A stretch of DNA of 64,000 bases, taken from positions 1,395 to 65,394 of the forward strand of contig CAIQBY010000166.1 of the NCBI GenBank assembly GCA_903870175.1, given 5' to 3'. Every line of letters starts with the position of its first letter. The first letter of the stretch is position 1. The position numbers were made by a program, and so were the translations under genes. This DNA is from an uncultured Bacteroidota bacterium (GTDB lineage: Bacteria > Bacteroidota > Bacteroidia > 2-12-FULL-35-15). The notes below the pieces were generated by a model. The model searched no databases and was not told the origin of the DNA. It saw only the letters and a list, made by a program, of their open reading frames with translations. Below, one piece after another: positions 3,390 to 62,310 of this stretch.

Positions 3390-3625
3390 TTTTTCTGAAA
3401 ATCTGTTAAGATTTTCGGAAAACTTGTGATGATTTTCGGAAAACAATCAAACGATGATGAAAATTTGCAAAGATTTTCGGAAAACTTACAATGATTTTCA
3501 GAAAATTTGTGATGATTTCAAGTAATCTTTGAATGATTCATGAAATCAGTGAAGATTTTGTAAAAATGTTAAATGATTTTCAGTAAATCTTTGAAGAGTT
3601 TCAGTAAATCTTCAAAGATGTCCAA
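3390..3625. repeat. Degenerate 21-bp tandem repeat array (~11 units, consensus ~GATTTTCGGAAAACTTGTGAT) in divergent intergenic region
   Basis: Unit starts recur every 21 bp (gattttcggaaaacttgtgat / gattttcagaaaatttgtgat / gattttcagtaaatctttgaa ...). Lies between the start of the minus-strand lipoprotein gene and the plus-strand T9SS gene. Confidence 0.8.
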
Positions 3626-3867
3626 AAAAGGCTTTTTTGCGTTCAAAATATCAATTTAATACAGTGATAATAAGTAAATCAATCAATAATTAAACACTTA
3701 AAATTTAGAAATCATATTAAAGTTAAATGTTAAAATAGTGTTTTATTACTTTTTTATGGCATTTGTAAAGTATATGTCGGACGATTTTGGTTCATTTCAA
3801 AATAGATGACGTCCTGAAAGCAAAAGACGACTTATTTCCAAAAATCACTCTTATATATAAGATAGAT

Positions 3868-3880
3868 TGTTTAGTTTTGT
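3868..3880 (+). promoter_or_regulatory. Candidate Bacteroidota -7 promoter box (TAnnTTTG) upstream of T9SS gene, inside duplicated module A
   Basis: ttTAGTTTTGtaaaacc lies ~25 bp upstream of the TTG start. The identical box recurs at 4851..4863 upstream of the second gene. Confidence 0.35.
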
Positions 3881-3898
3881 AAAACCAAATCCGCACAA

Positions 3899-4843
3899 TT
3901 GAAAAAGTACCTGTTTTTATTTATTGGAATACTGTTTTTTGTGAATGTAAAGGCGCAAGTACCAAATTTTTTTGTTGATGGCTCTGTTTGGTCATATTAT
4001 ACACAGGAAAGCTATGAACCTAATATGTGTACAACTCAAAACACATTGGAGAATGATTCAATACAAGGAGATACGGTAATAAATAGTATTAGTTATAAAA
4101 AATTATTTGCCTTGAGTCAGGTATCTATTCAAACTTATTATCCTTGTTATAATGGCACTACTTATCCAGTTGGTACAACTCTAAAATTTATTCGATATGA
4201 TACAGTAACGAGAAAACTATTTATGAAAAATGATACCGGCACTTATGTACCTGAAATACTGTTATACAATTTTAATCTCATCGCAGGAGATACGATTCCA
4301 CTTATTCCTGGCTACAATAGTGGTTTTAGTGGATGTAGAATTATTGATTCCGTAAAAAGTATTATATTTTTTGGAATCCCTGTTCGCAAATTTTATATGC
4401 CTTATATGCCGAGTAATCATCAGGGAAATTATATTATTGAAGGAATGGGAGGCTCAAATGGGTTAACTTTTTTTCAGCCTCAAATGATTTTATCGTCAGG
4501 CGGATATTATTTAACATCACTTAATTGTTTTAAATCTGGAAATAATGTTTACCCAAATGGGGCTTCTTGTCCTTCATTTATTCCAGTAGGCATCCAAGAA
4601 CTCCAAAACAAAACAACATTAGAACTTTCGCCAAACCCAAATAACGGCAGCTTCACAATTACAAGCAATAATCCACAACTAAAAACCATACATATATATA
4701 ATGTACTTGGCGAAGAAGTTTTTCATTCCGAAATCAACAATACTAAATCCGAAATCATAACAAACAATTTGCCAACGGGAATATATTTTGTAAAAGTTTC
4801 TTCGGAAAAAGAAGTGCTTACAAAAATGATGGTGAAGGAATAA
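3899..4843 (+). CDS. Secreted protein with T9SS (Por) C-terminal sorting domain
   Basis: 314 aa with a TTG start. Signal peptide MKKYLFLFIGILFFVNVKA. The last ~75 aa (LSPNPNNGSFTI...GIYFVKVSSEKEVLTKMMVKE) are a typical T9SS type-A CTD. Confidence 0.75.
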   Translation: MKKYLFLFIGILFFVNVKAQVPNFFVDGSVWSYYTQESYEPNMCTTQNTLENDSIQGDTVINSISYKKLFALSQVSIQTYYPCYNGTTYPVGTTLKFIRYDTVTRKLFMKNDTGTYVPEILLYNFNLIAGDTIPLIPGYNSGFSGCRIIDSVKSIIFFGIPVRKFYMPYMPSNHQGNYIIEGMGGSNGLTFFQPQMILSSGGYYLTSLNCFKSGNNVYPNGASCPSFIPVGIQELQNKTTLELSPNPNNGSFTITSNNPQLKTIHIYNVLGEEVFHSEINNTKSEIITNNLPTGIYFVKVSSEKEVLTKMMVKE

Positions 4844-4881
4844 GATAGATTGATTAGTTTTGTAAAACCAAATCCTCACAA

Positions 4882-5475
4882 TTGAAAAAGTACCTGTTTT
4901 TATTTATTGGAATACTGTTTTTTGTGAATGTCTCATGTAAAAAAGACCAGTCAATAATTAATGTAGTTATTCCAAACGGTGATTTTGAAAATTGGGATTG
5001 GTTACAATTCCCTCAAAATTGGAAAACTAATAGCTGCCCGCCATGCACACCACCTTACGAAATGAATATAGCTCAGGAAGATTCCCTTGAAGTATATCAT
5101 GGAAAATACAGTGTAAAATTAATATATAATTTAACTCCACCGATTTTGGGAGCTGCACCAACATGGTTAAAAAATAAATTTGCAATCACTGACCATCCTA
5201 ATAATTTGCATGGATATATTAAGTGCAATATACATGGTACAGATACTGTGTACATCGGAATCAAGTTGTTGAATAGAGGAGTAACAGTTGATGAAGGAAA
5301 TTGGAAAAGCACTGTAACAATAAACAATTGGACTTTAGTTAACATTCCAATTTCACAATCAAACTCAACAATTGATTCTGCTCTTATAACAATTATTGGA
5401 GGGAAATTCAAAGACTCAACCACAACTATGACGAATAGTACTACGTTTTGGGTTGATAATTTATTTTTGAATTGA
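4882..5475 (+). CDS. Hypothetical secreted protein (lipoprotein-like) sharing signal peptide with upstream T9SS gene, lacking a CTD
   Basis: 197 aa with a TTG start. The first 16 aa and ~90 bp upstream are identical to gene 3899. VNVSC suggests a lipobox. An in-frame stop comes before the orphan CTD fragment at 5508..5583. Confidence 0.5.
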   Translation: MKKYLFLFIGILFFVNVSCKKDQSIINVVIPNGDFENWDWLQFPQNWKTNSCPPCTPPYEMNIAQEDSLEVYHGKYSVKLIYNLTPPILGAAPTWLKNKFAITDHPNNLHGYIKCNIHGTDTVYIGIKLLNRGVTVDEGNWKSTVTINNWTLVNIPISQSNSTIDSALITIIGGKFKDSTTTMTNSTTFWVDNLFLN

Positions 5476-5760: not shown

Positions 5761-6858
5761 ATGAGCGGCAATACTTTCGGAACAATTTTCAAATTAACCA
5801 CTTTTGGCGAATCTCACGGAGAAGCCATCGGCGGAATAATTGACGGTTGTCCTGCCGGATTAGTCATTGATTTCGATTTTATTCAACATGAATTGGAACG
5901 CAGAAAACCCGGGCAATCCAACATCGTTTCGCAACGAAAAGAAAGCGACAAAGTTCAATTTCTTTCCGGCATTCTCGACGGCAAAACCATAGGCACTCCA
6001 ATAGGTTTTATTATTAAAAACGAAAATCAAAAACCGCAGGATTACGAACATATAAAAGACATCTATCGCCCGTCTCACGCCGATTATACTTACCAGACAA
6101 AATACGGAATAAGAGATTATCGTGGCGGCGGACGGTCATCTGCCCGCGAAACAATAAGCAGAGTGGTGGCAGGAGCAATTGCAAAATTAATATTGAAACA
6201 GTCCGGAATATCAATAAATGCCTACACTTCGCAGGTTGGTGATATTAAATTATTGAAGGATTATCACGAACTCGATTTATCAATGACAGAATCAAACGCC
6301 ATCCGTTGTCCCGATAAATTAATTGCCGAAACAATGATTCAGCGCATCGAGCAGGTTCGCAAAGCAGGAGATACAATAGGCGGAATAATAAGCTGCATAA
6401 TTAAAGGAACACCTGCAGGGCTTGGCGAGCCTGTGTTTGATAAGCTTCATGCTGATTTAGGAAAAGCAATGCTGAGCATCAATGCAGTAAAAGGTTTTGA
6501 ATATGGCAGCGGTTTCGAAGGAGTAAAAATGAAAGGCAGTGAACATAATGATGCTTTTATTCCGAACACCAGTCTTGATGAAATGATGATGAGACATCAA
6601 ACCAAAACCAATAACAGCGGCGGAATTCAAGGAGGAATATCAAATGGAGAAGATATTTATTTCAGAGTAGCATTTAAACCTGTCGCTACTATTATGCAAT
6701 CTCAGGAAACAATAAATTCAAAAGGAGAACCGGCAGAAATGCAAGGCAAAGGCAGGCACGACCCTTGCGTATTGCCACGCGCAGTGCCTATTATAGAAGC
6801 TATGGCTGCACTCGTTTTAGCAGATCATTTATTAAGAAATAAAACAAATAAAATGTAA
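5761..6858 (+). CDS. aroC: Chorismate synthase
   Basis: 365 aa. N-terminal FGESHG, and conserved chorismate synthase blocks ([19 protein letters not shown]). Confidence 0.95.
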
Positions 6859-6875
6859 AAACAAAGTACTTCACA

Positions 6876-6926
6876 TTCCGTCACCCCTCTCCTTTTTTCA
6901 AGGAGAGGGGCTGGGGGTGAGGTAGC
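6876..6926. terminator. GC-rich palindrome after aroC (CCCCTCTCC..GGAGAGGGG, with a second overlapping inverted repeat)
   Basis: tcacccctctccttttttcaaggagaggggctgggggtgagg forms a stable hairpin in an AT-rich region between aroC and the OmpA gene. Confidence 0.5.
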
Positions 6927-6938
6927 AACAAAAAATAT

Positions 6939-8951
6939 ATGTACAAAACCATCCTCTTTTTATTCTTCACTTTTATTTATTTCAATTCTTTTTCACAGGA
7001 CGAAAAACCTTGTCAGGAAATTGATAATGCTAAAGCAGTAGCTCTTTATAAACAAGGTATCGATAAGAAAAATAAAAAAGAAGAACGGCTTGATTATCTT
7101 AAAAAAGCACTTGATTTGGAACCAGATTATGTAGATGCCAATTTTGCTTATGCTGAAGAAAAAATAAAAACATTGATTTATCAGAACGCACCTTTTAAGC
7201 CTACTGAGCCTTATTTTAAGAAGGTAATTCAAATCTGTCCAAAGTATCATTCCGATCCGTATTATTATCTTGGTTTTATTTATTATGAAGAAGAAAAATG
7301 GGATAGCTGTGCAAAATATTTAAAAAGTTTCATGAATTATAAATCGGATGATGATACTAAATTCAATAAAAATTATCCTGCATTTATGTCGCAGGCAAAG
7401 GATATGATGAGTTATGCAAAAGTGTATAATGAAATATTCAATCATCCTGTTCCCTTCGATCCGAAACCTGTGGAAGGAATAAGTACAGAGCGTGATGAGT
7501 ACCTGCCGATAATTTCTCCGGATGATGAAACAATGTATTTCACACGCCGAATGCCATATCAAAGCAAAACTGGAATATCAGGTGCAACATACGATAACGA
7601 AATAGAAGTTTTTAGTTTAAGTAAACGAGATGGTGTAACTCATAAATTCAGTAAAGGCGGAGCAATGCCTCCTCCATTTAATACAGGGAACAATGAAGGC
7701 GGTGCAACAATAAGTATTGACAATAAACATTTGTATTTCACAATTTGTAAGGATGAAAAAGGAGCGGCAGGAAATTGTGATATATATTATTCAGATTTGG
7801 TGGACGGAGTCTGGACAAAACCTGAGAAAGTGCCGGGAATAAACGATCCTGTTTACTGGGATTCACAGCCTACTCTAGCTTCCGATGGTAAAACATTGTA
7901 TTTTGCAAGTGACCGGAAAGGCGGTTATGGTGGTGTTGATTTATATGTAACAGTAAAAGATGAAGTTACAAACCAATGGAGCAAGCCTGAAAATCTCGGT
8001 AAGACTATTAATACCAATGGAGATGAAAAGTCACCTTTTATTCACTCCGATTTTCAAACACTCTACTTTTCTTCAAACGGACTGCCCGGTGTTGGAGGAT
8101 TTGATATTTTCTTTTCCCGTAAAAATGAGAAAGGTGCCTGGTCAGAGCCTAAAAATATTGGAGTTCCGATCAATACCAATTCGGATGACTTAGGCTTTTT
8201 TGTTAGTACCGACGGGCATCTTGGCTACTTCGCTTCCAATGTTCATTCGCAAATGAAAAATAAATCTATTGGGGGATATGATATTTACGCATTTGATTTG
8301 TATAAAGAGGCGCGACCTGATGAAGTAGCTTTTATCAAAGGAAAGGTTGAAGATTTAGGGAACGCACCGGCTAAGAAATTTGATGTGGAAGTGAAAGATG
8401 CCACCACAAAGAAAACTACTAAAGCGATGGTAGATACTATTACCGGCGAATATTCGGTGGTTGTTGACAGAAAGGAAAAACATGATTTGATTGTGGAAGT
8501 TAAAAAGGAAAATTACGCTTTCAGTTCTCAGTTAATTCATAAGGATTCAATAGTGAATGCTAAACCTGTTAAAGTAAAAGTAACTGCCGATACTATCAAA
8601 GTTGGGCAAACTTATTTACTTAACAATATTTATTATGCGACCAATTCATCGGTTCTCGATCCTCGCTCTAATATTGTTATAGATGAGTTTGTCGAGTTTT
8701 TGAAAGCGCATCCTTCAATGAAAATTGAAATTCACGGACATACTGATAATGTAGGAAATGACAAAGCAAATCTTGCTTTGTCAACAGACAGAGCATTTAC
8801 AGTTCGTGATTTATTGCTTGCAAAAGGAATTGCTGAAAAACGTTTGATAGCCTTTAAGGGATTCGGTGCCACAAAACCTATAGCTGATAATTCTTCGGAA
8901 GCAGGGCGTGCAAAGAACAGAAGAACCGAGTTTGTAATCGTTGAAAAGTAA
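6939..8951 (+). CDS. OmpA-family outer-membrane-associated protein with TPR and TolB-like beta-propeller (WD40-like) repeats
   Basis: 670 aa. Signal peptide. TPR-like N-terminus, repeated TolB/WD40-like blocks (DGKTLYFASDR.., TLYFSSNG..), and a C-terminal OmpA peptidoglycan-binding domain (HGHTDNVGNDKANLALSTDRAFTVRDLL..NRRTEFVIV). Confidence 0.85.
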   Translation: MYKTILFLFFTFIYFNSFSQDEKPCQEIDNAKAVALYKQGIDKKNKKEERLDYLKKALDLEPDYVDANFAYAEEKIKTLIYQNAPFKPTEPYFKKVIQICPKYHSDPYYYLGFIYYEEEKWDSCAKYLKSFMNYKSDDDTKFNKNYPAFMSQAKDMMSYAKVYNEIFNHPVPFDPKPVEGISTERDEYLPIISPDDETMYFTRRMPYQSKTGISGATYDNEIEVFSLSKRDGVTHKFSKGGAMPPPFNTGNNEGGATISIDNKHLYFTICKDEKGAAGNCDIYYSDLVDGVWTKPEKVPGINDPVYWDSQPTLASDGKTLYFASDRKGGYGGVDLYVTVKDEVTNQWSKPENLGKTINTNGDEKSPFIHSDFQTLYFSSNGLPGVGGFDIFFSRKNEKGAWSEPKNIGVPINTNSDDLGFFVSTDGHLGYFASNVHSQMKNKSIGGYDIYAFDLYKEARPDEVAFIKGKVEDLGNAPAKKFDVEVKDATTKKTTKAMVDTITGEYSVVVDRKEKHDLIVEVKKENYAFSSQLIHKDSIVNAKPVKVKVTADTIKVGQTYLLNNIYYATNSSVLDPRSNIVIDEFVEFLKAHPSMKIEIHGHTDNVGNDKANLALSTDRAFTVRDLLLAKGIAEKRLIAFKGFGATKPIADNSSEAGRAKNRRTEFVIVEK

Positions 8952-20232: not shown

Positions 20233-22530
20233 ATGAGTATTTCAAAACAATCAACTTACAGTTTACTCTTTGTAATGTTGTTTTTGTTTTCTTTCAAAAT
20301 AATTCAGGCACAAAGAGTAGGGTTGGTACTTAGTGGTGGCGCAGCAAGCGGCATTGCTCATATTGGAGTGATTAAAGCCTTGGAAGAAAATCATATTCCG
20401 ATTGATTATATTACAGGCACTTCAATGGGCGCTTTTGTAGGTTCGCTATATGCAATGGGGTATTCTCCTGTGCAAATGGAAGAACTTGTAAAGTCTGAGC
20501 GATTCAGGAATATGTCAGAAGGTATAATTGACCAGAAATATGCTTATTATTTCAAGCGTGATGATGCTAATGCTTCCTGGATAACCGTTAGACTTTTTGA
20601 TTCTGCTCTTGTTTCGGCTTTACCTACTAATGTTATTTCTCCTACTTCCATGGATTTTGGGATGATGGAAATTGCCGGAGCACCTGCCGCAGCTGCCGGT
20701 TATAAGTTCGATAGTTTGTTTGTTCCTTTTCGTTGCGTTGCATCTGATATCGAAAAGAAAGAATCAATAGTTTTTAAAGACGGTGATTTGGCACAGGCGG
20801 TAAGGTCTTCCATGTCGTACCCTTTTTATATTCGTCCTATTTTAGTGGACGGAAAATTATTATTTGATGGTGGTTTGTATAATAATTTCCCTTCAAATAT
20901 TATGTATAGTGATTTTTATCCTGATTTTATGATTGGCTCAAACGTGAGCTCGAACAATCCTCCGCCGGATGAAGACAATATTCTATCACAAATAAAAAGC
21001 ATGTTGCAAAGTAAATCGAACTTTGATTTGCCATGTGAAAATGGAATAATTATTCAGCCGAAAACAAATGTTGGTCTTTTTAATTTTAGCAATGTGCAGC
21101 CATTAATTGATAGCGGATATGCTGCAACAATTCGGCAAATAGACTATATAAAAAGAAATGTTGAAAGAAGGACGGTTCCTTCAGAATTAACAGCAAAAAG
21201 AACTGCTTTTAAAGCCAAAGAACCACTTGTAATTTTCGATAATATTATTATTGAAGGCTTAAACATGACCGAATCGGATTATGCAAGGAAAGTACTTCGG
21301 AATAAAAATACCAAAGTGGATTTGGAAGCTATTAAAGCAGGATATTTTCGTCTTTCGGCAGATAATAAAATAAAATATATTTACCCTACTACAAAATATA
21401 ATTCTCAAACAGGATTTTACGATTTGTACCTGCGCATTAAAAAAGAGAAGCATCTTATTCTCGATTTTGGCGGAGTATTCTCAAGTCGCCCTATTAGTGA
21501 GGGATACATTGGCATAAAATATAATGAACTTGGTAAATTTGCTACGTCAATAATGGCGAATGGATATTTTGGAAAGCTATATAACTCGGCACAAATAAAA
21601 GCACGATTTGATTATCCATTTAGAGTTCCGCTATATATTGAGCCGGATATTACATGGAATAAATTTGATTATTATAAGAGCAGCAGCGCGTTTCTGCAGG
21701 ATATAAAACCTGAATATTTATTGCAAAATGAAGAATTTGCAATGTTGAATATCGGCCTGCCTACTGGCAAAAAAGGGCGTGTAGTGATGGGTGCTGGTGG
21801 CGGGCAAATAACTGATAAATATTACCAAACTACTGTATTTACTCCCAAAGACACTACCGACAGAAATGATTTTGACTTCTATTCAGTTCAGGCATATTAT
21901 GAAATTAATACGCTGAACCGAAAACAATATGCTAATCAAGGAGAATATTTGAATTTCAAAATCCGCTATGTAAGCGGTGTTGAAAAAAACGAACCCGGTT
22001 CTACTTCTACTGATACGGTTGATAATTATACGAATCGTCATGAATATTATGTATTGAAATTAACCGGTGAAAAATATTTCAATAGGAGAGGAACGATAAA
22101 AATCGGACTTTTTGGAGAAGGTGTTTATTCTACTCAAACATTATTCAGGAATTATATAGCTACCGTATTATCTGCTCCCGCTTTTCAACCTACTATGGAT
22201 AGCAGAACGCTTTTTCTGGAAAATTATCGTGCCAATGAATATTTTGCCGGAGGTTTAAAATTTGTCGTCAATATTCGAAAAAATGTTGAAATACGTTTTG
22301 AGGGATATATTTTCCAGCCGTATCAGGCTTATATCCGAACTGCGGATAATAAAACTGATTATACACTTCCTTTTGCTTTGCAACATTATATTGGGTCGGG
22401 AGCTATTGTTTGGGATACTCCAATCGGACCGATGAGCCTTGGTGTAAATTATTACGATCAGGTGGTGAATCCTTTCTCCATTGATTTCCACTTTGGTTAT
22501 ATTTTATTTAATAAACGGGCGTTGGAATAG
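20233..22530 (+). CDS. Patatin-like phospholipase fused to Omp85/BamA-like outer-membrane beta-barrel
   Basis: 765 aa. Signal peptide. Patatin motifs GGAASGIAHIGV and GTSMG (GxSxG). The long C-terminal region looks like a surface-antigen beta-barrel. Confidence 0.85.
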   Translation: MSISKQSTYSLLFVMLFLFSFKIIQAQRVGLVLSGGAASGIAHIGVIKALEENHIPIDYITGTSMGAFVGSLYAMGYSPVQMEELVKSERFRNMSEGIIDQKYAYYFKRDDANASWITVRLFDSALVSALPTNVISPTSMDFGMMEIAGAPAAAAGYKFDSLFVPFRCVASDIEKKESIVFKDGDLAQAVRSSMSYPFYIRPILVDGKLLFDGGLYNNFPSNIMYSDFYPDFMIGSNVSSNNPPPDEDNILSQIKSMLQSKSNFDLPCENGIIIQPKTNVGLFNFSNVQPLIDSGYAATIRQIDYIKRNVERRTVPSELTAKRTAFKAKEPLVIFDNIIIEGLNMTESDYARKVLRNKNTKVDLEAIKAGYFRLSADNKIKYIYPTTKYNSQTGFYDLYLRIKKEKHLILDFGGVFSSRPISEGYIGIKYNELGKFATSIMANGYFGKLYNSAQIKARFDYPFRVPLYIEPDITWNKFDYYKSSSAFLQDIKPEYLLQNEEFAMLNIGLPTGKKGRVVMGAGGGQITDKYYQTTVFTPKDTTDRNDFDFYSVQAYYEINTLNRKQYANQGEYLNFKIRYVSGVEKNEPGSTSTDTVDNYTNRHEYYVLKLTGEKYFNRRGTIKIGLFGEGVYSTQTLFRNYIATVLSAPAFQPTMDSRTLFLENYRANEYFAGGLKFVVNIRKNVEIRFEGYIFQPYQAYIRTADNKTDYTLPFALQHYIGSGAIVWDTPIGPMSLGVNYYDQVVNPFSIDFHFGYILFNKRALE

Positions 22531-22629
22531 TTTATTGGTTCATTAGTCTGTAAATAAAAAACTTTAATAATTTCGAGAAATAATGAATAATCGATTGATT
22601 TTATATTCCGGAAATGAACCAAAACTAAT

Positions 22630-22850
22630 TTTCCCACGCCCATAGGAAATTTTCCCGTTCCCGTTGGAACCATTCCCACTCCCGTTTGAATCGTTCCCTC
22701 TCCCGTTTGAACCGTTCCAGTTCCCGTTGGAACGGTTCCAATTACCGTGGGAACCGTTCCCATTACCGTGGGAATCTTTCCCGTTCCCGTTGGAACCGTT
22801 CCAACGACCGTGGGAACCATTCCCACTACCGTGGGAACCGTTCCCACGGC
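22630..22850. repeat. 21-bp tandem repeat array (~10.5 units, consensus TGGGAACCGTTCCCATTACCG) each containing the palindrome GGAACNGTTCC
   Basis: A periodic array sits in the 428-bp intergenic space between the convergent patatin and mlaD genes. Both overlapping ORFs (22497-22847 minus; 22664-22993 plus) are heptapeptide-repeat artefacts of the array. Confidence 0.85.
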
Positions 22851-22958
22851 TAATTATTTTAACTAAAGTGCTGTTTTATAGCATATTGACTTTATTAAGG
22901 AAGAGAAATTGGGCTTTGGAAGCTTTTTTGGAACGTGAATCTGGAAATCCAAATAGTA

Positions 22959-23942
22959 TTATTTCTTCTCTTTCTCTTTATCCTGCTTTTTGAAATACTT
23001 TTTGAAAGGCCAGGTATGTCGTAAAGCAATCATATTTTCATTAAAGTTTCCTGCACCTTCTTTCACGTTCAACATACTTTTATTAAGATTATGAACAAAC
23101 ATGGTATCAGTAAGCAACGTACCGATTGAGCCTTTTCCATTCTTCAAGTTATTGGAAATAGTTTTGAAATTGCCTGAAATAATAGCAACCGAATCGCTGA
23201 TGGAATGTATATTTACTATAGTTTGATTTAAAGTATGCGAAAAAGTGGTATCGGTAAGCAATGCACCCACAGAGCCTTTTCCGGATTTAATATCTTTTAC
23301 TATTTTGCTCAAATCCCCTGTGATAACTGCCGTATTGTCACCAGTAACTTTAAATCGAATAACAGCATTTCTAACATTTTCGGCTAAAGTTGAATCAGTC
23401 AACAAATGCCATAATGAATTGTTATTATTGAATTTTTCGGATACTCCTTTTAAATTATCAGTAATCACTTTTAAATTATCATTAGTCATTGTAAGGGTTC
23501 GCAAGGCATTGTCCATCTGTAATGGATTCAGCGTAATTAATACACTTCCTTCTTCCACAGATTTAGACCCTTCTTTACCCGGTGAAATATTTATCAGTTT
23601 ATTACCTAGCAATCCATCAGTACCAATAGATGCAATTGCATTTTTCATTATAAATTTTGTGGATTCCTTATCAATAGTAAAATCTACTTTAATAGTTGTA
23701 TCCGAAGAAGAAGATACTTTGGAAACAGTACCTACGTTGATTCCATTAAAACGCACATTATTGCCGGATACCAATCCATTAACATTATTAAAATTTGCAC
23801 TCACATTTATTGTTGAATGAAAAATATTTTTCTTGCTTCCTATATAATACAAACCAAGTATGAGGAAGGTGGTAGCGATTAATACAAAGGCTCCAAGTTT
23901 GGCTTTATTTGCTGATTGTTCTTTCATTTTTGTTTTAATCAA
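22959..23942 (-). CDS. mlaD: MlaD/MCE-family substrate-binding protein
   Basis: 327 aa. N-terminal TM followed by an MCE domain (NVNGLVSGNNVRFNGINVGTVSKV). Confidence 0.8.
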   Translation of the reverse strand: MIKTKMKEQSANKAKLGAFVLIATTFLILGLYYIGSKKNIFHSTINVSANFNNVNGLVSGNNVRFNGINVGTVSKVSSSSDTTIKVDFTIDKESTKFIMKNAIASIGTDGLLGNKLINISPGKEGSKSVEEGSVLITLNPLQMDNALRTLTMTNDNLKVITDNLKGVSEKFNNNNSLWHLLTDSTLAENVRNAVIRFKVTGDNTAVITGDLSKIVKDIKSGKGSVGALLTDTTFSHTLNQTIVNIHSISDSVAIISGNFKTISNNLKNGKGSIGTLLTDTMFVHNLNKSMLNVKEGAGNFNENMIALRHTWPFKKYFKKQDKEKEKK

Positions 23943-32156: not shown

Positions 32157-32287
32157 TACTGGTTCATTAGTTTATTTGTTCATTAGTCTGCATAAAAAAA
32201 GCCCCGAATTTCTTCGGAGCTAAATTATCGCATCTTCCTCTCAAACCTCTTTTTAAAGTCAATGCAATAATGAACTATAATTTCTCC

Positions 32288-33088: not shown

Positions 33089-33350
33089 ACCTTGTTTTTC
33101 TCCTTGTTTCAATAAGAATGGATATTGTTTGAATGATATCCGATATTATTTGAACAAGAACCAATCTTATTTGAACAAGAACCAATCTTGTTTCAATATG
33201 AACCTACCTTGTTTAAATGATATCCGATCTTGTTTGAATGATATCGGATATTATTTGAACAAGAACCATTATTGTTTCAATAAGAACCAATCTTATTGAA
33301 ACAAGATCCATTCTTGTATGAATAAGATCCATTCTTATTGAAACAAGGAG
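33089..33350. repeat. 21-bp tandem repeat array (~12 units, consensus ~RTTTGAAYAAGAWCCAATCTT) bounded by 24-bp inverted repeats
   Basis: Units include gtttgaatgatatccgatatt, atttgaacaagaaccaatctt and others. The terminal inverted repeat is ctccttgtttcaataagaatggat (33100-33123) paired with atccattcttattgaaacaaggag (33327-33350). Located in an 840-bp divergent intergenic region. Confidence 0.85.
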
Positions 33351-45039: not shown

Positions 45040-45116
45040 TGTCATAAATTTTATGACTTATAAATCTTAAATGTTTTTTTGTGCGGGCAACATCCTTCCA
45101 TGTTGCAATATTCTAA

Positions 45117-45220
45117 CCCGCTTTCCCCTCCAATCTTATTTGCCTTGAAAAAAGGCAAATAAGGATTTCCGGTATAATCGGGCGCAGTTGCAAGTGCATC
45201 GTTCTCCTAAAGTTTTCCAT
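45117..45220. ncRNA. Conserved ~105-nt intergenic element, copy 1 (strand unresolved). Contains hairpin TTATTTGCCTT/AAGGCAAATAA
   Basis: Near-identical to 62207..62310 outside the hairpin. The hairpin stems differ but both pair perfectly (compensatory). Confidence 0.45.
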
Positions 45221-45278
45221 ACCAGGAGAGTAGTTAAAATAGCAATTCATCCAAAACCAACAAGTTACAATTAACAAA

Positions 45279-45520
45279 ACTCCAAGTTTAGTCAGCCAAC
45301 CTCCAAGTATTGACACCAAACCTCTAAGTTTAGTCAGCCTGCCTCCAAGTATTGACACCAAATCTCCAAGTTTAGTCAGCCTGCCTCCAAGTATTGACAC
45401 CAAACCTCTAAGTTTAGTCAGCCTGCCTCCAAGTATTGACACTAAATCTCCAAGTTTAGTCAGCCTGCCTCCAAGTTTAGTTAGCCAACCTCCAAGTTTA
45501 CCAAGCAAACTTTTAAGTTC
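45279..45520. repeat. 42-bp (2 x 21-bp) tandem repeat array (~5.5 units: CTCCAAGTTTAGTCAGCCTGC + CTCCAAGTATTGACACCAAAY)
   Basis: Perfect or near-perfect copies immediately after conserved element copy 1, upstream of uvrD. The minus-strand ORF 45113-45571 is a heptad artefact of the array. Confidence 0.85.
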
Positions 45521-45615
45521 GTTCAATAGACTCACAAAAAAACTCGCCACAATCACCAACCTCCCCATCATTACTTTTCAACAACCAAATTTCCCAACAA
45601 CAATTTAATCTACCT

Positions 45616-62079: not shown

Positions 62080-62206
62080 TGTAATGGATTTTAAGTGAAT
62101 TATTAAATTGTTTTTATAGTGAGATGCATCCCCCTTTAAAATTCCATAAACAATTTTGAAATATTTTTTTTGGCGACCAAAGTTCCTGCCATCCATCAAG
62201 TTCGTT

Positions 62207-62310
62207 CCCGCTTTCCCCTCCAATCTTTTTATTTTTGAAGAAAAAATAAAAAGGATTTCCGGTACAATCGGGCGCAGTTGCAGCAGTATCGTCCTCCTCC
62301 AGTTTTCCAT
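62207..62310. ncRNA. Conserved ~105-nt intergenic element, copy 2. Contains hairpin CTTTTTATTTTT/AAAAATAAAAAG. Lies in 5' leader of A2M gene on minus strand
   Basis: See copy 1 at 45117..45220. Flanks are conserved (CCCGCTTTCCCCTCCAATCT ... GGATTTCCGGTAyAATCGGGCGCAGTTGCA ... ATCGTyCTCCT..AGTTTTCCAT). Confidence 0.45.

Follow-up and report, generated by a model that had tools for sequence, protein, structure and literature searches.

An array of 21-bp units lies between the convergent genes for a patatin-family phospholipase and a MlaD family protein in a 64,000-nt stretch of DNA from an uncultured Bacteroidota bacterium (contig CAIQBY010000166.1; the whole stretch is hereafter called the window). 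In our best reading, this array is a non-coding, lineage-restricted and constrained palindromic minisatellite. We tentatively propose, from sequence comparisons, that it acts like a cluster of repetitive extragenic palindromes (REPs) or bacterial interspersed mosaic elements (BIMEs), that is, as a structured palindromic element at a convergent junction, a role that we favor with somewhat less than even confidence.

Anatomy, symmetry and descent of the array

The array consists of 10–11 head-to-tail units without a single indel (Table 1). Tandem Repeats Finder called it at 22652–22846 with a period of 21, 9.3 copies, 80% matches and 0% indels, and additionally reported a 63-bp super-period. A repeat search found copies stepping by exactly 21 bp from 22610/22631 to 22865 as well as long inverted repeats within the array. 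The tandem array that a preliminary description of this DNA had seen between convergent genes is therefore real, with patatin on the plus strand and mlaD on the minus strand. The array starts 100 nt past the stop of patatin (22530) and ends 110 nt past the stop of mlaD (22959), so that it occupies the space between the two 3' ends. Its GC content is ~0.49 in comparison to ~0.33 in the flanks and the background. With a helical repeat of 10.5 bp, the period of 21 bp corresponds to two turns of the DNA helix.

The preliminary description had assigned an 11-bp palindrome to every unit. This palindrome, GGAACNGTTCC, is exact in only four of the ~10 units and present with at most one mismatch in seven, whereas the shorter core GGAA-N3-TTCC is exact in eight of ten units at 21-bp steps and is the conserved feature. 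The palindrome is nevertheless enriched well above chance, with four exact copies against 0.03 expected and every occurrence within the array. Outside the array, the shorter core has three matches in the window against 1.1 expected, and a scan of the 64 kb found no further clusters of the palindrome or of unit sites and no other copy of the unit.

Set out as 9+3+9 nucleotides, the entire unit is near-palindromic and has two dyad centres, the GGAA-N3-TTCC core and an ACGG/CCGT linker. The three mlaD-proximal units are nearly full-length 21-bp palindromes such as CCGTGGGAAC-C-GTTCCCACGG and pair at 7–9 arm positions, for example in CCGTGGGAA-CGG-TTCCCACGG. The patatin-proximal units are degenerate, with 4–6 paired arm positions. 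GTAG is found inconsistently, in units such as CGGTAGTGGG and CCCGTAGG. When 28 units from three lineages (the window and the contigs L013 and L014, see below) were aligned in the 9+3+9 register, GGAA and TT were invariant, and the 3-nt centre and the outer positions varied.

The pairing of the arms was counted over nine arm pairs in these 28 units. Arm cells pair in 71% of cases in comparison to at most 56% when the partner column is slid, and the covariation score of 0.183 exceeds the 0.129 of shuffles, only one of 500 of which scored as high. Pair 5-17, for instance, occurs in the states T-A, G-C, A-T and G-T, and paired changes are seen in GTGGGAA/TTCCCAC vs GTTGGAA/TTCCAAC, in CCGCAGGAA/TTCCTGCGG and in GTGT../..ACAC. 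Both strands fold much better than shuffled sequence, with z = −8.7 and −7.9 for the window array and z = −8.1 and −13.0 for the L013 array. Mismatches of the G-U type (16) and of the A-C type (13) are balanced. Because neither the mismatch balance nor the similar z-scores favor one strand as RNA, we attribute the symmetry to the DNA, in agreement with the dyad-symmetric, DNA-level element described earlier, which also fits the exact length of 252 bp in three lineages and the invariant GGAA/TT core. Rfam searches in gathering and E-value modes returned nothing for the array apart from sub-threshold matches to miRNA-hairpin models; a structured RNA family was rejected on this result and on the missing single-strand preference. 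An approximate wedge model predicts strong intrinsic curvature for the L013 and L014 arrays and ordinary curvature for the window array. Since it differs between lineages, curvature is not the conserved property.

Despite its palindromic units, the array is strand-asymmetric in the window (22631–22849), in L013 (5100–5309) and in L014 (1947–2156). In each of these lineages, C is abundant and G scarce on the patatin-sense strand (C/G 1.7–2.0), and the mlaD-sense strand is rich in purines and in G. This asymmetry may stem from tandem duplication of an asymmetric founder unit. Alternatively, one may speculate that the C-rich patatin-sense strand serves as a Rho-loading or Rho-utilisation site; G-quadruplex formation on the G-rich strand is likewise a speculation from base composition.

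By exact-protein look-ups, at least 18 metagenome contigs of freshwater origin carry the locus, and homologues bear the names 'Bacteroidia bacterium' and 'Bacteroidota bacterium'. Contigs of the same species share the array with two exceptions. L001 contains one extra 21-bp unit (337 nt between the anchors vs 316 nt elsewhere), which bears out the length polymorphism among strains that the preliminary description had suggested looking for. In L002, a T-to-G change turns GGAATCTTTCC into GGAATCGTTCC and thereby restores a half-site.

In L013 (MlaD 94% identical), a 21-bp array occupies the same site but consists of different units, GGGAAATTTTCCCACGGGCGT and GGGAAATTTTAAAACGGGTGT, and L014 (MlaD 89%) carries a more decayed array of similar units. 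The unit type of both is GGAAATTTTCC/AAA in comparison to GGAACNGTTCC in the window, so that it has changed already at 94% MlaD identity. The P0004 contig (MlaD 90%) has a 405-nt gap at the site. In L015 and L017 (MlaD 82%), mlaD is followed by a canonical terminator and then by a different 21-bp array (CTGCGCAGAATTTGAAACGTG), which holds the palindrome CTGCGCAG (L015 5085–5218, L017 1805–1939). Both contigs end inside this array, which indicates that it breaks short-read assembly there. Synteny with patatin is lost in L009–L012 (MlaD ~80%). On the patatin side, L062 (patatin 83%) has an extra open reading frame (ORF) and other repeats, L063 (81%) has an ordinary canonical terminator after patatin without an array, and L064 (79%) has a short palindromic mini-array, in which ~3.5 copies of a 22-bp unit with the perfect palindrome TACCCA-AGA-TGGGTA begin right at the stop codon (5300–5385).

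The arrays of the window, L013 and L014 were aligned between a conserved block, ATATGCTATAAAACAG, and a terminal unit, GGAAAATTAGTTTTGG. The distance between these anchors is exactly 252 nt (12 × 21) in all three, and the ungapped identity over the 252 nt is 0.67, 0.58 and 0.75 for the three pairs. The two patatin-proximal window units are orthologous to the last units of L013, and the remaining window units were replaced in place, with a change of the centre from AAT/ATT to CGG/CCG/TGG. In unit-by-unit comparisons, off-diagonal identities often exceed those on the diagonal, a sign that units have converted one another. Synonymous differences in mlaD between the three lineages amount to 0.47–0.64 and the identity of the adjoining non-coding spacer to 0.75–0.78; the array is about as conserved as this spacer and more conserved than synonymous sites. 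Judged by these comparisons, the array is old, predates the split of lineages with 47–64% synonymous divergence in mlaD, and is no hypervariable scrap.

Table 1 Features of the patatin–mlaD junction (coordinates in the window).
Feature	Position	Strand	Remarks
Core array	22631–22849		10.4 head-to-tail 21-bp units, no indels; GGAA-N3-TTCC in 8/10
Three near-perfect palindromic units	22787–22849		7- to 9-bp arms, 3-nt centre; strongest predicted hairpins, −41 kcal/mol per 84 nt
Degenerate patatin-proximal units, ancestral type (GGAAATTTTCC, GGAAAATTAG)	22610–22660		Orthologous to terminal units of the L013/L014 arrays
Last unit with 9-bp stem and 3-nt loop, then CTAATTATTTT	22829–22862	+	Terminator-like site, patatin sense
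Anchored segment, 252 nt (12 × 21) from its mlaD-side edge to the start of the terminal unit	22598–22870		From terminal unit row GGAAAATTAGTTTTGGTTCAT (patatin side, low) to block ATATGCTATAAAACAG (mlaD side, high); coordinates approximate within a few bases
Mechanical 116-aa ORF, heptads VGTVPTG...	22497–22847	−	Annotated by gene callers; judged non-gene
Mechanical 109-aa ORF, PWEPFPL heptads	22664–22993	+	TTG start, overlaps mlaD 3' end; judged non-gene
Patatin-family phospholipase, 765 aa	20233–22530	+	Flanking gene
MlaD family protein, last gene of mlaE-mlaF-mlaD	22959–23927	−	Flanking gene

Possible roles at the convergent junction

In the REP/BIME-like role that we propose, a stack of hairpin- or cruciform-prone palindromes would mark the ends of two converging transcription units. 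Both transcripts could have their 3' ends stopped or stabilised by the array, which could also, or instead, offer a structured DNA site on which, for instance, a topoisomerase or nucleoid protein lands. In our best reading, the array changes mainly by in-register conversion between units, which spreads new variants at constant length; whole units are gained only rarely, and symmetric paired changes keep the arms complementary. A terminator scan detected no canonical terminator between patatin and mlaD; the sole terminator-like site there is the last unit (22829–22849) with the following CTAATTATTTT on the plus strand. Other genes of the window end in canonical terminators, as does patatin in L063, a relative that lacks the array. 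REPs are palindromes of 20–40 bp, which are often found in tandem and mostly between unidirectional or convergent ORFs, and which have been linked to termination, mRNA stability and gyrase (PMC3733652). The evidence from the array points to a symmetry in the DNA and fits hairpin action and a protein landing site alike.

Several observations weigh against such a role. Termination does not require ten units, strict phasing and a fixed total length. At least half of the L013 and L014 units have inner stems that are broken, with GGG opposite AAA, and nothing passed in a terminator scan of the two sites. No U-run comes after the first hairpin of the mlaD-sense strand. The unit family occupies one locus in 64 kb, whereas REPs are dispersed. 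A terminator role is impossible for the three other 21-bp arrays of the window, which are located in 5' or tandem intergenic regions. Moreover, hardly any variation is seen in the GGAA arm, but TTAA stands in place of the partner TTCC in about half of the L013/L014 units, so that the better-kept arm looks more like a recognised motif than like a stem. Finally, the ACGGGCGT linker is present in both orientations in L013, and paired changes can arise in one step by linker inversion or template switching, a mechanism that we infer. Given this one-step route, the covariation is no proof of selection.

In a different explanation, the units are phased sites to which a dimeric or oligomerising protein binds sequence-specifically; it would recognise GGAA-N3-TTCC in each unit and form a cooperative filament or wrapped complex on one DNA face. 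The preliminary description had already drawn up such a phased array, and some support for this general idea comes from the strictness of the period, the fixed length and the invariance of the core. GGAA and TT hold a fixed register through all 28 units of three lineages, around a variable centre and variable outer positions. The period of 21 bp and the length of 252 bp are exact across lineages. Both strands fold alike, with no strand bias (16 vs 13), which places the feature in the DNA, and three arrays of unrelated sequence in the window share the period of 21. Phased arrays of 17–22-bp sites are known from plasmid iterons, the lambda origin, ParR-parC and ArgR boxes. However, we consider a dedicated binding array unlikely, if still a serious candidate. 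Half or more of the units in L013 and L014 lack one half-site, and the middle of the motif was rewritten in eight of ten units of the window lineage. The co-varying outer arms are not what a fixed protein recognition sequence predicts; they fit a hairpin or cruciform, or template-switch mutation. Promoters carry no additional sites, the GGAA-N3-TTCC matches outside the array being three against 1.1 expected, and the position between two 3' ends offers no obvious regulatory target. Among the genes called within ~6 kb on either side (patatin, Peripla_BP_2, SNF2-Mrr, MlaE/F/D, Usp, a response regulator and a histidine kinase) there is no par gene, rep gene or candidate binder gene.

The array could also be a functionless by-product, in which a palindromic unit was amplified by slippage, homogenised by conversion and template switching, and tolerated at a harmless site between two 3' ends. 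The turnover of units among relatives, the one-unit polymorphism, the conversion indicated by off-diagonal identity and the loss or replacement of the array in more distant relatives all argue for this. The same holds for the curvature, which the approximate model predicts to be strong in L013 and L014 and finds absent from the window array, a property that was thus not kept. Nevertheless, we regard a pure by-product as improbable. The array stayed at one site through 47–64% synonymous divergence of mlaD and retained its exact length and invariant core. Bacterial genomes delete neutral DNA quickly. The longest intergenic regions of the window are those with arrays.

A number of further candidates fitted poorly by eye: the −35/−10 spacing of extracytoplasmic function (ECF) sigma factors, a sigma-54 promoter, the half-site geometry of the CRP/FNR type (a Crp-family response regulator lies ~4 kb away), LytTR 9+12 repeats, MraZ GTGGG repeats and a CsrB-like GGA sponge RNA.

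Coding potential of the array

Gene callers annotate the minus-strand ORF at 22497–22847, and this 116-aa ORF is called on the listed same-species metagenome contigs that include that side of the array. If it were translated, the product would be a small heptad-repeat protein ([V/M/I]-G-x-[V/F/I]-[P/K/Q]-T-[G/V]) and the palindrome a side-effect of its codons. The codons for Gly-Thr-Val-Pro and Gly-Asn-Phe-Pro are inherently self-complementary (GGN ACN GTN CCN), so that a coding origin would yield the palindrome for free. The period is divisible by 3, no stop interrupts the frame in the window, L013 or L014, and the strand of this ORF is purine-rich and G-rich in these three lineages. In addition, variability in L013/L014 is weakly ordered as expected for codons, with position 3 above 1 above 2.

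In spite of this, translation of the frame seems very improbable to us. Three frames are open across the array in the window, two of which are open in L013 and L014 alike, and these two mirror each other because the DNA is palindromic. The ratio of non-synonymous to synonymous changes (pN/pS) is 0.71–0.80 in the 116-aa frame and about the same, 0.62–0.77, in the mirror frame on the opposite strand, in comparison to 0.08–0.10 for mlaD. In the window array, it is the second codon position that varies most. In the paired change of AAT/TTT to ACG/GTT, complementarity was kept but amino-acid character was not, and a GC content of 49% is high for a genome with 33%. The sole start codon is a GTG inside the first unit, without a non-repeat N-terminus, and the tail overlaps patatin by 34 nt and stops at three different points in the three lineages. 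The preliminary description had noted that the ORFs spanning the array overlap both flanking genes and lack a start context. This is roughly right, with a GTG inside a unit and an overlap with patatin on the minus strand, and a TTG and an overlap with mlaD on the plus strand.

Homology searches agree. A word-indexed search of 5.8 billion protein clusters retrieved one same-species fragment and nothing else. An exhaustive HMMER search of 1.84 billion representatives gave 146 matches without any true homologue beyond candidates from the same locus; they comprise the same-species fragment, one ORF from a related lineage, and generic low-complexity G/P/T heptad repeats of unrelated proteins, some of them eukaryotic. 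The related-lineage ORF was judged to come from the same locus by its shared VGKLVLVH tail. No ORF of the array matched Pfam. Judged by its sequence, the array is thus not a conserved protein but non-coding, as the preliminary description had held.

Other 21-bp arrays and comparison with known systems

The window contains three further intergenic arrays with a 21-bp period, at 3391–3618, 33103–33347 and 45275–45500, with unrelated unit sequences, 6–10.5 copies and super-periods of 42, 84 and 105 bp. All four large arrays of the window therefore have the period 21, and their flanks are not shared. The array at 3391–3618 carries TTTTC-N-GAAAA palindromes; this array and the one at 33103–33347 sit 280–440 nt upstream of genes for cargo proteins with a type IX secretion sorting domain. 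Directly downstream of the 42/21-bp array at 45275–45500, on the minus strand, lies the first of two Rfam matches to Flavo-1 RNA (45110–45189, minus strand, 67.7 bits; 62200–62279, minus strand, 58.5 bits). The homology of the two runs to 104 nt (45117–45220 vs 62207–62310), and a 152-aa ORF with an ATG start (45113–45571) spans the array into the first match. A 42-nt stretch at 3857–3898 recurs with 95% identity at 4840–4881; it precedes the adjacent genes 3899–4843 and 4882–5475 and probably represents a 5' leader or promoter region common to both.

A collection with one genome per species was scanned for GGAAAWTTT occurring three times at 21-bp spacing, a pattern that catches any 21-bp array with this 9-mer. 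The scan found 29 loci (L018–L046) in many phyla, several with palindromic cores and a second linker dyad. They have no common flanking gene family, and homology among them is not demonstrated. Their hosts include termite-gut Treponema, Tannerella, Dysgonamonadaceae, Prevotellaceae, Ignavibacteriae, Acidobacteria, Streptomyces, Myxococcota and an Asgard archaeon. Many of these arrays have ~10–11 copies and often lie at contig ends, and the copy number may in part reflect the limit of short-read assembly. A scan of the Joint Genome Institute (JGI) metagenomes for the window-type unit yielded ten chance single matches and one unrelated array, L050, on a GC-rich soil contig. The latter (6746–6958) has ten copies of a 21-bp unit with a 42-bp super-period and AACCGGTT/GGAACCGTT cores, and is apparently non-coding.

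These scans bear on the possibility that the array is one copy of a dispersed mobile element with further copies beyond the window, either a MITE (miniature inverted-repeat transposable element) with an internal minisatellite like BrickBuilt, or a member of a REP family spread by REP-associated tyrosine transposases (RAYTs). BrickBuilt is a spacer-less intergenic tandem array of 23-nt units with predicted long stem-loops in a Bacteroidota genome (PMC4596501), and in four metagenome-assembled genomes of our scan one unit occurs at two loci (L033/L038, L023/L046, L032/L042, L036/L043). We nevertheless give a mobile origin hardly any credence. Neither the unit nor the flanks have a second copy in the 64 kb, no shared leader or tail and no terminal inverted repeats were found, the JGI scan gave no other locus with this unit, and the orthologous site is occupied across lineages. 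A MITE was rejected for the further reason that the flanks are not repeated beside the other arrays; they are unique save for a 30-nt motif shared with the 3' region of another gene. This motif (GGTTCATTAGTCTG.A.ATAAAAA) follows the stop codons of patatin (22531–22560) and of a P-type ATPase gene (32171–32200) with 87% identity. At the latter site a canonical bidirectional terminator comes next, and at the former TTGGTTCATT pairs with AAATGAACCAA at 22613–22623.

Since four arrays of unrelated sequence occur within 64 kb, and since phase and the length of 252 bp were kept at the patatin–mlaD junction while the sequence was rewritten, the array might belong to an undescribed class of helically phased 21-bp arrays in intergenic regions of Bacteroidota. 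Such arrays would be nucleation platforms for an oligomerising DNA-binding or nucleoid-organising protein, or DNA-structure-dependent topoisomerase sites, in which period and symmetry are selected rather than sequence. We regard this generalisation as quite doubtful. What most deserves to be pursued is the recurrence of the 21-bp period in this genome. Read conservatively, the array is a clean case of a palindromic minisatellite mis-annotated as a hypothetical protein. If the stronger reading is true, Bacteroidota possess a DNA-level element that keeps its period, symmetry and total length while its sequence drifts in concert. The convergent junction would then be a place to seek the Bacteroidota counterpart of REP/BIME-gyrase biology or a phased nucleoid-protein site. 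To our knowledge, nucleoid proteins, termination signals and RNA-decay signals of Bacteroidota are poorly known.

Among known systems, the REP/BIME elements of E. coli, Pseudomonas and others resemble the array as extragenic palindromes of 20–40 bp that are often in tandem and lie mostly past 3' ends, including those of convergent ORFs (PMC3733652). The array unit is likewise an imperfect palindrome of this size, extragenic and located after 3' ends. As with REPs, copy number differs between strains, and the linkers in both orientations recall BIME mosaics. In contrast, REPs are high-copy, dispersed and tied to RAYT transposases, whereas the unit occurs at one locus only within the 64 kb scanned. 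The array further differs by abutting units without a spacer, a strict 21-bp period and a fixed total length. Of the GTAG and CGTC tags of REPs, GTAG is seen in part of the units, and neither is consistent.

The BrickBuilt MITE of Porphyromonas gingivalis is similar to the array in that it comes from the same phylum, is strictly intergenic, consists of spacer-less units of about two helical turns with predicted long stem-loops, and is annotated with hypothetical ORFs by pipelines (PMC4596501). However, BrickBuilt is present in 19 copies per genome with common leader and tail segments and inverted-repeat ends, none of which is seen in the window, and has a period of 23 nt instead of 21. Promoter activity was demonstrated for BrickBuilt (PMC4596501).

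The preliminary description had suggested a partition centromere or an iteron, and neither identification holds. Like ParB-parS and ParR-parC (10–20-bp repeats), the array is made of clustered, phased repeats for which cooperative coating is possible. Yet no parA, parB or parR adjoins it among the nearby called genes, it shows no resemblance to the parS consensus, its unit turns over among close relatives where a centromere would be conserved, and it is a single cluster in 64 kb. Iterons and the four 19-bp repeats of the lambda origin, which are dyad-symmetric and bound by O dimers, are tandem sites of ~19–22 bp with a phasing of about two turns. The array has such tandem direct repeats in the size range of 17–22 bp at this spacing, but it lies on the chromosome between housekeeping genes, and its sequence is not conserved together with any partner. 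The genes called within ~6 kb on either side include no initiator (rep) gene, an AT-rich unwinding element and DnaA boxes were not seen, and the flanks are ordinary 3' spacers. A BLAST search against a phage collection gave no match, and the sole plasmid match, a (CGTTCC)27 microsatellite in Paracoccus, was rejected as unrelated.

Bacterial variable number tandem repeats (VNTRs) and minisatellites, for example mycobacterial interspersed repetitive units (MIRU), share with the array the head-to-tail arrangement of 10–100-bp units and the whole-unit polymorphism among strains, which is represented here by the extra unit of L001. In contrast to hypervariable VNTRs, the array consists of palindromic, co-varying units, and its length is otherwise fixed across lineages.

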